Assembly (NCBI RefSeq): GCF_003334305.1
Contig: NZ_QOWS01000001.1
DNA: 64,000 nucleotides
Reading direction: 5' to 3' (one strand)
Source of the DNA: Escherichia coli
GTDB lineage: Bacteria > Pseudomonadota > Gammaproteobacteria > Enterobacterales > Enterobacteriaceae
This document shows positions 61,835 to 63,073 of this stretch, piece after piece. A program made the position numbers and the translations under genes. Position 1 is the first letter of the stretch, and every line of letters begins with the position of its first letter. The notes under the pieces are model-generated. The model was not told where the DNA came from. It worked only from the letters and a program-made list of their open reading frames with translations, and made no database searches.

Positions 61835-61944
61835 ATATTCATCCCTGAAATGTATTAATGAAATAAACGATATTTTACGCGCAATAAATGTTTGGCGCAT
61901 TAGTTGTTTGAGCAAAAAATATCTGGAAAGCAGATCGCAGTAAA

Positions 61945-62028
61945 TAAAAAAACCTGCTGGTGAGGCAGGTTCTTTTATTTACTATTTTCAGGCCTAACAC
62001 CACAGCCTGTGCAACATCGTGTTCCAAC
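61945..62028 (-). ncRNA. Candidate antisense sRNA antitoxin (OrzO/OrzP-type), about 84 nt
   Basis: Minus-strand TTGCAA-17 bp-TATAAT promoter (-10 at plus 62035-62040); predicted 5' end near 62028; strong terminator (AACCTGC-loop-GCAGGTT then TTTTT on minus); first ~20 nt complementary to the toxin leader at 62175-62194. Confidence 0.6.
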
Positions 62029-62034
62029 GAACGA

Positions 62035-62085
62035 ATTATAACCACGGCTGGACCCCGTTGCAATTAAGATAATGAGATTTATAAT
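62035..62085. promoter_or_regulatory. Back-to-back sigma70-like promoters sharing one palindromic -35 hexamer (toxin mRNA rightward, antisense sRNA leftward)
   Basis: Shared TTGCAA at 62058-62063; plus-strand TATAAT at 62080-62085 (16-bp spacer); minus-strand TATAAT at 62035-62040 (17-bp spacer). Confidence 0.55.
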
Positions 62086-62266
62086 CCAGACCGTTGGGAC
62101 GTTGCGCCGGATCGAACCTATTTCAAGTCCTGGCTACCGGACGGGGGGTGCTGCAGGTGGTGCCCTGATCCGGAGTGCAACATCGTGGTCCAACATACGT
62201 AAACCAGTATCGACAGGCAGTGTAAGGGTAAGGTGCTGGTGTTGCGCTCCTTAATAAGGAGAGCGG

Positions 62267-62356
62267 ATGGACTCGCTGACACAAAAGTTAACCGTGCTCA
62301 TTGCTGTACTGGAGCTATTAGTGGCTCTGTTACGGTTGATTGATTTGTTGAAGTAA
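62267..62356 (+). CDS. zorO/zorP: 29-aa hydrophobic peptide, type I toxin candidate (ZorO/ZorP-type)
   Basis: ATG 62267, AAGGAG 5 nt upstream; MDSLTQKLTVLIAVLELLVALLRLIDLLK, one predicted TM helix with charged ends; about 174-nt leader from the predicted start near 62093. Family name is from memory; which copy is zorO and which zorP is not resolved. Confidence 0.75.
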   Translation: MDSLTQKLTVLIAVLELLVALLRLIDLLK

Positions 62357-62377
62357 CGGGCAAATTGAAACGCATCT

Positions 62378-62402
62378 AAGGGGGAAAACCGCTTCCCCCT
62401 TT
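62378..62402 (+). terminator. Terminator hairpin of toxin mRNA copy 1
   Basis: AAGGGGGAA-aaccgc-TTCCCCCTT perfect 9-bp stem 22 nt after the stop; short U-tract. Confidence 0.5.
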
Positions 62403-62554
62403 AATAAAATGATTACTGTTTTTATTAATTCATCATATAACTCATTTTTATTTATAAATTCATCGATTTTATATTCAACGCACCATTTGACCGGGATGTG
62501 AATATTTATGTTGGGCTATTGGCAAAAAATATCTGGAAAGTAGATCGCAGAAAA

Positions 62555-62636
62555 TAAAAAAACCTGCTGGTGAGGCAGGTTCTTTTATTTACTACAGTGA
62601 CGCTAACTTGCTGATTGTGCAACATTTCGTACCAAC
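62555..62636 (-). ncRNA. Candidate antisense sRNA antitoxin, copy 2 (OrzO/OrzP-type), about 82 nt
   Basis: Minus-strand -10 TATAAT at plus 62643-62648 and shared -35 TTGCAA at 62666-62671; terminator 62561-62581 with U-tract; 5' region complementary to the copy-2 leader at 62783-62802. Confidence 0.6.
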
Positions 62637-62642
62637 GAATAA

Positions 62643-62693
62643 ATTATAACCATATCCACACTCCATTGCAATTCAGTGAGTGAGATTTATAAT
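62643..62693. promoter_or_regulatory. Back-to-back promoters of copy 2 sharing a palindromic -35
   Basis: TTGCAA at 62666-62671; plus-strand TATAAT 62688-62693; minus-strand TATAAT at plus 62643-62648. Confidence 0.5.
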
Positions 62694-62874
62694 CCTGCCC
62701 GTTGGGAGGTTGTGCCGGATCGGACCAATTTTAAGTCCTGGCTGCCGGACGGGTGGTGCCGCAGGCGGTGCCCTGATCCGGAGAGCAACGTTTCGTACCA
62801 ACATACGTAAACCAGTATCAACAGGCAGTGTAAGGGTAAGGTGCTGGTGTTGCGCTCCTTAATAAGGAGAGCGG

Positions 62875-62964
62875 ATGGACACGCTGACACAAAAGTTAAC
62901 CGTGCTCATTGCCGTACTGGAGTTATTAGTGGCTCTGTTACGGTTGATTGATTTGTTGAAGTAA
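62875..62964 (+). CDS. zorO/zorP: 29-aa hydrophobic peptide, type I toxin candidate copy 2 (ZorO/ZorP-type)
   Basis: ATG 62875 with AAGGAG upstream; MDTLTQKLTVLIAVLELLVALLRLIDLLK, differing from copy 1 only at residue 3 (S to T). Confidence 0.75.
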   Translation: MDTLTQKLTVLIAVLELLVALLRLIDLLK

Positions 62965-62985
62965 CGGGCAAATTGAAACGCATCT

Positions 62986-63010
62986 AAGGGGGAATACCGT
63001 TTCCCCCTTT
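62986..63010 (+). terminator. Terminator hairpin of toxin mRNA copy 2
   Basis: AAGGGGGAA-taccgt-TTCCCCCTT stem. Confidence 0.5.
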
Positions 63011-63018
63011 AAGAAAGC

Positions 63019-63073
63019 TATACTCGTCATACTTCAAGTTGCATGTGCTGCGACTTTAATTATCTAGAGTATA
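63019..63073. repeat. Truncated ERIC-like element abutting the yehK 3' end
   Basis: TATACTCGTCATACTTCAAGTTGCATGTGCTGCG ... AATTATCTAGAGTATA: ERIC terminal arms with the central part missing. Confidence 0.55.

Follow-up and report, generated by a model that had tools for sequence, protein, structure and literature searches.

Type-specific pairing cores in the tandem zorP-orzP and zorO-orzO toxin-antitoxin modules of Escherichia coli

Introduction

The zor-orz modules are type I toxin-antitoxin systems described from E. coli O157:H7 EDL933 as zorO-orzO and zorP-orzP (Fozo et al. 2010; PMC3919570; PMC5397157; PMC11264685). Each module comprises an Orz sRNA of about 81-83 nt, transcribed divergently from zor, the gene of a 29-aa membrane toxin. 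The first 18-20 nt or so of Orz pair with a site about 73-91 nt upstream of the toxin start codon, and this pairing blocks translation and leads to RNase III-dependent decay of the zor mRNA. The toxicity of Zor on overexpression and its RNase III-dependent, sRNA-specific rescue were shown on zorO, OrzO and OrzP (PMC3919570), and Hfq is dispensable for the repression of zorO by OrzO (PMC3919570; PMC5397157). The EAP region of the zorO mRNA becomes exposed once the first 28 nt are removed, and represents a putative ribosome standby site for an RBS sequestered in a hairpin (PMC5397157).

Specificity has been studied in the same system. OrzP, when equally expressed, fails to rescue zorO toxicity (Wen, Won and Fozo, NAR 2014, PMC3919570). 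Upon exchange of the V1 region (sRNA +9 to +11), OrzO carrying the V1 of OrzP fails, OrzP carrying the V1 of OrzO rescues, and compensatory mutations in the V1 of zorO restore repression (PMC3919570). Repression was found to require a minimum of 15 continuous pairs, or of 17 discontinuous pairs interrupted by a single internal mismatch (PMC3919570). A survey of 2024 described the pairing region as 'quite variable', a property that 'may prevent crosstalk', and reported cognate pairing potential in 99.8% of 2,439 loci; it also listed three locus types, P, O and Q, and recorded ZorP as a T3S variant relative to ZorO (PMC11264685). In the zor-orz literature no report was found of OrzO acting on zorP, the direction tested experimentally being that of OrzP on zorO only, nor was a report of zorP toxicity found there.

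The DNA analysed here, referred to as the window, is a 64-kb stretch from E. coli, near the end of which two such modules lie in tandem. An initial annotation of the window proposed that the pairing region of the second copy had diverged from that of the first so that each sRNA is specific to its own toxin. It is very probable that the locus consists of tandem zorP-orzP and zorO-orzO modules in which a variable core gives each sRNA specificity for its own leader.

Identity and organisation of the locus

The end of the window is the E. coli yehL-yehK intergenic locus, in which two type I toxin-antitoxin modules lie in tandem, first zorP-orzP (copy 1, 61946-62404) and then zorO-orzO (copy 2, 62556-63012). 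The tandem duplication (608-610 bp) includes the repeats D1 (300 nt, 87% identity) and D2 (73 nt, 97% identity). Over 1151 nt the region matches many E. coli chromosomes, that of O104:H4 among them, at 100% identity, and its location there is between yehL and yehK. The features of the two modules are as follows.

61946-62028, minus strand: orzP antitoxin sRNA gene, 83 nt, with the 5' end at 62028 and an intrinsic terminator hairpin at 61946-61983 (inverted repeat I4)
62009-62028, minus strand: 5' pairing segment of OrzP, plus-strand text GTGCAACATCGTGTTCCAAC
62035-62085: divergent promoter of copy 1, with the orzP -10 at 62035-62040 (minus), a shared palindromic -35 TTGCAA at 62058-62063 and the zorP -10 TATAAT at 62080-62085
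62093-62404, plus strand: zorP toxin mRNA, with the probable +1 at 62093 (by homology to zorO), the RBS at 62256-62261, the ORF at 62267-62356 and the terminator at 62378-62404
62175-62194, plus strand: Orz site in the zorP leader, GTGCAACATCGTGGTCCAAC
62556-62636, minus strand: orzO antitoxin sRNA gene, 81 nt, with the 5' end at 62636 and a terminator hairpin at 62556-62593
62617-62636, minus strand: 5' pairing segment of OrzO, GTGCAACATTTCGTACCAAC
62643-62693: divergent promoter of copy 2, with the orzO -10 at 62643-62648 (minus), a shared palindromic -35 TTGCAA at 62666-62671 and the zorO -10 TATAAT at 62688-62693
62701-63012, plus strand: zorO toxin mRNA, with the +1 at 62701, the RBS at 62864-62869, the ORF at 62875-62964 and the terminator at 62986-63012
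62773-62802, plus strand: EAP or putative standby region of zorO (+73 to +102)
62783-62802, plus strand: OrzO target site in the zorO leader, GAGCAACGTTTCGTACCAAC, its paired part being 62785-62802, 73-90 nt upstream of the ATG

Both sRNAs match the Rfam family RF02083 (OrzO-P RNA antitoxin) over the full model length (1-76) and above its gathering score of 60 bits, orzP with 99.9 bits (E=7e-17, 61946-62021, minus strand) and orzO with 88.8 bits (E=1.5e-14, 62556-62629, minus strand). Weak matches to other Rfam models (STnc370, the Thr and Trp leaders, isrH and MIR5638) are below the respective gathering scores and fall on terminator hairpins; they were dismissed as chance or terminator-like.

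OrzP starts with GUUGGAACACG and OrzO with GUUGGUACGAA. At +9 to +11, copy 1 has the bases ACG and copy 2 has GAA; these are the published V1 bases of OrzP and OrzO (PMC3919570) and thus identify the first copy as zorP-orzP and the second as zorO-orzO. The ORFs, of 29 codons each, differ at 3/90 nt and their products at one residue (T3S), in line with the initial annotation, which had called the peptides nearly identical. The product of copy 2 (MDTLTQKLTVLIAVLELLVALLRLIDLLK) is identical to the published ZorO (PMC6669753), and that of copy 1 (MDSLTQKLTVLIAVLELLVALLRLIDLLK), with T3S, is ZorP. The RefSeq records inspected (61880-63030 of the window and the sampled loci L001-L013) all lack annotations for the zor peptides and the orz sRNAs, and the yehL-yehK interval of about 1.2 kb is drawn empty in them.

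The geometry of zorO agrees with that published, namely, a 5' UTR of 174 nt, an RBS at +164 to +169, the EAP region at +73 to +102 and a transcript of about 310 nt (PMC5397157; PMC3919570). The promoter hexamers of both copies match those published for zor and orz (PMC11264685), and every predicted fold, like the RNAalifold consensus, contains the RBS hairpin CUCCUUAAUAAGGAG. All testable features of the zor-orz family, that is, the Rfam match, the 29-aa peptide, promoter geometry, duplexes, leader geometry and V1, were found in the window. The window strain is not EDL933, and its locus is the same as the zor-orz locus of that strain in everything tested, the tandem order P then O included, with no material difference. 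Compared with an O157:H7 genome the locus is 99.2% identical, with a few SNPs outside the pairing segments and identical pairing segments.

The divergent promoters of each module have one -35 hexamer in common, the palindrome TTGCAA (62058-62063 and 62666-62671). Both transcripts of each module have a TATAAT -10, start exactly 35 nt from this hexamer and open with GTTGG.

Cognate and non-cognate pairing

The two pairing strings of copy 2 and their positions had been given exactly in the initial annotation. The 18-mer GCAACRTTTCGTACCAAC occurs exactly twice in the 64 kb of the window against 0.02 occurrences expected, and two matches were obtained in 0/100 shuffles. As DNA, the 20-mers are direct repeats on the same strand, 166 bp apart and on either side of a divergent promoter, and such an arrangement would also suit operator sites flanking the promoter. 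The probability of this explanation is negligible. One of the 20-mers coincides with the mapped 5' end of an sRNA that Rfam recognises and that has a promoter and a terminator of its own, and the G.U-compatible substitutions (A/G at 62624/62790) are sensible at the RNA level only. Published structure probing and compensatory mutagenesis demonstrate RNA pairing (PMC3919570; PMC5397157), and the compensatory-mutation experiments exclude operator sites.

As RNA-RNA partners, the segments form 19/20 pairs in each copy, which confirms that complementarity within the copies has been kept. OrzO and zorO share 18 contiguous pairs (17 Watson-Crick and one G.U) with 62785-62802 and a dG of -31.3 kcal/mol, and OrzP and zorP pair in the pattern 6(1)13, with an A.G mismatch at sRNA +7 and a dG of -34.0 kcal/mol. 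Each non-cognate combination forms 16/20 pairs, with a longest run of 8 and -18.9 kcal/mol for OrzP and zorO, and a longest run of 9 and -24.4 kcal/mol for OrzO and zorP. The cognate duplexes of the two types are thus 7-15 kcal/mol more stable than the non-cognate ones. OrzP and zorO form 15 pairs inside the 18-nt region, the number given for this combination in PMC3919570.

The flanks of the duplex (GUUGG...AUGUUGC) are constant in all modules, and a variable core, sRNA +5 to +11, which includes V1 at +9 to +11, differs by module, the sRNA and mRNA sides changing together. Since both sides change jointly, each sRNA forms the full duplex only with its own leader. For OrzP and zorO, this agrees with the experiments and V1 exchanges of PMC3919570, in which zorO, OrzO and OrzP were identical in the pairing region to the sequences of the window. 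The claim of the initial annotation that each sRNA is specific to its own toxin is therefore borne out by published work in one direction, with the exact V1 bases present in the window. The published pairing thresholds predict that OrzO would likewise fail on zorP.

The internal mismatch at sRNA +7 of the zorP-orzP duplex (62022 and 62188, A.G) recurs in each of the 8 P-type units sampled from E. coli, in E. whittamii and in MOD1-EC7003. At this position the mismatch of the Q type is A.A, and full pairing at +7 occurs in the O type only. In the first stem-loop of the sRNA, the 5' arm is the constant GUUGC of the pairing region and the 3' arm is GUGGU in P, GCAAG in O and GUAAC in Q. These type-specific 3' arms still pair with GUUGC, so the heavily diverged middle of the sRNA keeps a common fold.

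Distribution of the divergence between the two copies

Alignment of the two units gave 493 columns with 60 differences (87.8% identity), distributed among the segments as follows.

Terminator part of the sRNA: 2/73 differences (3%)
Middle of the sRNA, 62595-62616: 16/24 differences (67%), the most diverged stretch
Pairing segment of the sRNA: 4/20 differences (20%), at 62626-62628 and 62631
Divergent-promoter spacer, 62637-62700: 16/64 differences (25%)
UTR upstream of the leader site: 9/82 differences (11%)
Leader site: 7/20 differences (35%)
UTR downstream of the leader site: 1/72 differences (1%)
ORF: 3/90 differences (3%)
3' UTR and terminator: 2/48 differences (4%)

The core of copy 2 does differ from that of copy 1 on both sides, as had been noted. 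Taken together, the pairing segments are more diverged than the rest of the unit (11/40 vs 49/453 differences, Fisher p=0.005), and no significant enrichment of differences was found in comparison with the neighbouring non-coding DNA (p=0.10 and p=0.39). The leader site represents a sharp island of divergence within the 5' UTR (7/20 vs 10/154, p=0.0009), and the pairing segment of the sRNA shows no excess of divergence over the rest of the sRNA (p=0.80). The initial annotation had placed the divergence in the pairing region and described most of the rest of the units as nearly identical. With the units aligned and identity taken per segment, the first statement holds for the leader site and not for the sRNA side, and the second is contradicted by the sRNA middle and the promoter spacer. 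A more fitting description of each unit is a diverged regulatory half (62595-62802) followed by a near-identical 3' half. The observation of a diverged core is thus real and was correctly read, and the location of the divergence was overstated.

This distribution bears on a neutral explanation, according to which an old tandem duplication drifted over the regulatory half, the 3' half was homogenised by purifying selection and gene conversion, and specificity is incidental. Beyond the pairing segments, the diverged block takes in the middle of the sRNA, the spacer of the divergent promoter and the proximal part of the UTR, as such a history would predict. Its remaining evidence comes from the comparison of types given below, from which it appears unlikely.

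Pairing types in E. coli and other Escherichia

The comparison included 13 E. coli loci chosen across the identity range of the matches which, together with the window, contain 21 units, and 4 units from 3 other Escherichia species. The latter loci were obtained with an exact-match pattern of 25 nt from the RBS region in genome contigs, which yielded 3 loci, all from Escherichia; diverged homologues would escape such a pattern. Three main pairing types and one variant, Q', were found in the sample.

P type: sRNA-side core CGTGTTC, leader core CGTGGTC
O type: sRNA-side core TTCGTAC, leader core TTCGTAC
Q type: sRNA-side core GGCATCT, leader core GGCGACT
Q' variant: sRNA-side core GGCGCCC, leader core GGCGACT

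P, O and Q correspond to the three published locus types (PMC11264685). The Q type is absent from the window. The known zorQ-orzQ (PMC11264685) has the architecture, the constant flanks and the 19/20 cognate duplex of the window modules, and a different core. Two orz-only remnants excepted, every complete unit sampled forms 19/20 pairs with its own leader. In a 4x4 matrix of the types, the cognate duplexes range from -31 to -34 kcal/mol and the non-cognate ones from -16 to -27.5 kcal/mol, with runs of <=9.

Several of these values are relevant to the possibility that insulation is incomplete, one sRNA (for example, OrzO or a Q-like one on zorP) still repressing the other leader, so that the modules would be hierarchical rather than orthogonal. 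OrzO and zorP retain a 9-bp 3' helix within their duplex of -24.4 kcal/mol, and OrzQ' forms 18/20 pairs with zorP at -27.5 kcal/mol. No reciprocal experiment of OrzO on zorP was found in the literature, and strains that lack any zor gene keep and express an orphan orzP, hinting at other targets (PMC11264685). However, no non-cognate combination reaches the pairing published as functional, namely 15 continuous pairs or 17 discontinuous ones with one mismatch, and OrzP, with 15 pairs in the 18-nt region, fails on zorO (PMC3919570). Incomplete insulation is therefore considered decidedly improbable, and specificity of each sRNA for its own leader is the preferred reading.

Changes on both sides occur at 5/20 intermolecular pairs (sRNA +5, +6, +9, +10 and +11), with 95% of cells paired among P, O, Q and Q'. 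The intermolecular covariation score of 0.39 exceeded those of 500/500 shuffles and of all slid controls. Columns in which P, O and Q are all different make up 5/40 in the pairing segments vs 5/442 elsewhere, a 12-fold enrichment (p=0.0006).

In other species the cores do not change within a type. The P+O tandem recurs at the yehL-yehK position in E. whittamii, and one unit each is present in Escherichia sp. E1V33 (O type) and MOD1-EC7003 (P type). The four ortholog comparisons of the window with these loci revealed 0/160 differences in the pairing segments vs 60/684 in the adjacent non-coding DNA (p=2e-6), and the contrast with the paralogs, which differ at 11/40 positions of these segments, gave p=1e-4; the ortholog comparisons share phylogeny, and these p-values are descriptive only. 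Pairing cores fixed within a type and different between types are the pattern that would be expected of specificity determinants, and this multi-type comparison is stronger evidence than the two-copy comparison of the initial annotation.

The neutral history set out above is at odds with these data. Within-type pairing segments are frozen across species while their flanks change, the changes on the two partners are compensatory, and the columns with three states are concentrated in the pairing segments. Drift would erode cognate pairing, yet it is kept in all complete units sampled, as is the potential for it in nearly all loci of the published survey (PMC11264685). The recombination that this history invokes for the 3' half is nevertheless apparent from the shuffling of ORF SNPs among P, O and Q and from a P/O chimera in one O157:H7 strain. 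Frozen and compensated cores show selection for cognate pairing; they do not alone prove selection against cross-pairing. The suggestion of the initial annotation that the two sides co-evolved to avoid cross-talk is accordingly upheld as regards the compensatory changes, and the avoidance of cross-talk stays an evolutionary interpretation. Divergence of the cores is probably maintained by selection for insulation.

Polymorphisms of the ORF (T3S, GCT/GCC and CTA/TTA) are distributed without regard to the P, O or Q regulatory type (L001-L011; 62267-62356 and 62875-62964 of the window), and the P-type units of M18 and S1-CAM-04-C encode a ZorO-like T3. Such a pattern points to recombination or gene conversion within the 3' half, with regulatory halves that remain distinct. 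The locus of E. coli O157:H7 Gim1-1 (L007, about 1545-2040) contains a single chimera, in which a P-type orz, promoter and leader site are joined to an O-type ORF and 3' end. Such a unit is the expected product of a recombinational deletion between copies within their near-identical 3' halves. The loci of RL465 (L012) and BL21 (L013) carry orzP-only remnants (about 1545-1760) comprising the sRNA gene, the promoter and the first 27 nt or so of the zor leader, followed by the yehK flank. They match a published orz-only class, OrzPmg (PMC11264685).

The sampled loci contain the type combinations P+O, P+Q and O+Q. Type-specific probes run on 5426 complete E. coli genomes gave the following counts.

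P probe: 4696 genomes, 4700 places
O probe: 1262 genomes, 1262 places
Q probe: 856 genomes, 858 places

The number of places is close to the number of genomes for each type, and genomes with two copies therefore almost always hold two different types. The scarcity of same-type duplicates could reflect shared ancestry or recombinational loss of identical tandem repeats, rather than selection.

Predicted structure of the zor leader

In the predicted structure, the 5' end of the zor mRNA (+1-5 GUUGG and +9-13 GUUGC/U) forms helices in cis with the two constant flanks of the Orz site (+98-102 CCAAC and +85-89 GCAAC, respectively), that is, 62701-62714 with 62785-62802 in zorO and 62093-62106 with 62177-62194 in zorP. 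MFE folding gives these helices for zorP and zorO but not for zorQ, and the RNAalifold consensus computed from 18 distinct leaders contains them as well. The type-variable core (+90 to +97) is placed in an internal loop of the predicted structure. Paired to the flanks of the site and leaving the core unpaired, the 5' end of the leader would mimic the sRNA in cis, in shortened form. The prediction agrees with the published closed state of the EAP region in the full-length mRNA. No compensatory changes in the cis helices (+1-5/+98-102 and +9-13/+85-89) were detected across the 18 distinct leaders, only one-sided changes from Watson-Crick to G.U, so the structure rests on energy prediction and published probing rather than on covariation.

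The 5' ends of the sRNA and the mRNA were also compared as possible products of an inverted duplication. They share GTTGG and GTTGC and an identical promoter geometry, and their alignment scored better than shuffles (p~0.001-0.005), the segments being very short. A tentative and rather doubtful proposal is that the P, O and Q cores are old, trans-species 'incompatibility types' kept by selection, the architecture channelling variation into a window of 8 nt, and that the sRNA perhaps arose when the 5' end of the mRNA was duplicated in inverted orientation about the palindromic -35. The idea of incompatibility types is based on the recurrence of identical P and O cores outside E. coli, in E. whittamii and two further Escherichia species, the scarcity of same-type pairs and the predicted location of the variable core in an internal loop.

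Significance and comparison with other type I systems

The role of the core in specificity was published in 2014 (PMC3919570) and surveyed in 2024 (PMC11264685); the finding is therefore already known and adds no new biology. The small additions made here are the unchanged P and O cores in other Escherichia, the near absence of same-type duplicates among the 5426 genomes, the +7 mismatch fixed in P (A.G) and Q (A.A), the single palindromic -35 common to both promoters, and the coincidence of the variable core with the predicted internal loop of the leader cis structure. They refine the known picture of zor-orz rather than change it.

Among other type I systems, tisB/istR-1, shoB-ohsC and dinQ-agrB (PMC5397157) resemble zor-orz in having a divergent sRNA gene with about 18-20 nt of complementarity far upstream of a sequestered RBS, in the activation of the mRNA by 5' processing and in the involvement of RNase III. 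OhsC and IstR do not repress zorO (PMC3919570). Unlike zor-orz, these systems have unrelated sequences and toxins, and are not tandem paralogs with alternative specificity cores. The zor-orz modules represent a clean natural case of duplicated, RNA-regulated toxin modules that a few nucleotides keep from mutual regulation, a case useful for the design of orthogonal sRNA regulators.

The Sib/Ibs family is similar to zor-orz in comprising many near-identical paralogous type I modules that are separated by few nucleotides of the recognition region. Each E. coli Sib RNA reportedly discriminates its own ibs mRNA, as Han and colleagues are said to have described in NAR in 2010. The Sib RNAs are fully complementary cis-antisense RNAs, whereas the Orz RNAs are divergently encoded and have only about 18-20 nt of complementarity to their targets.
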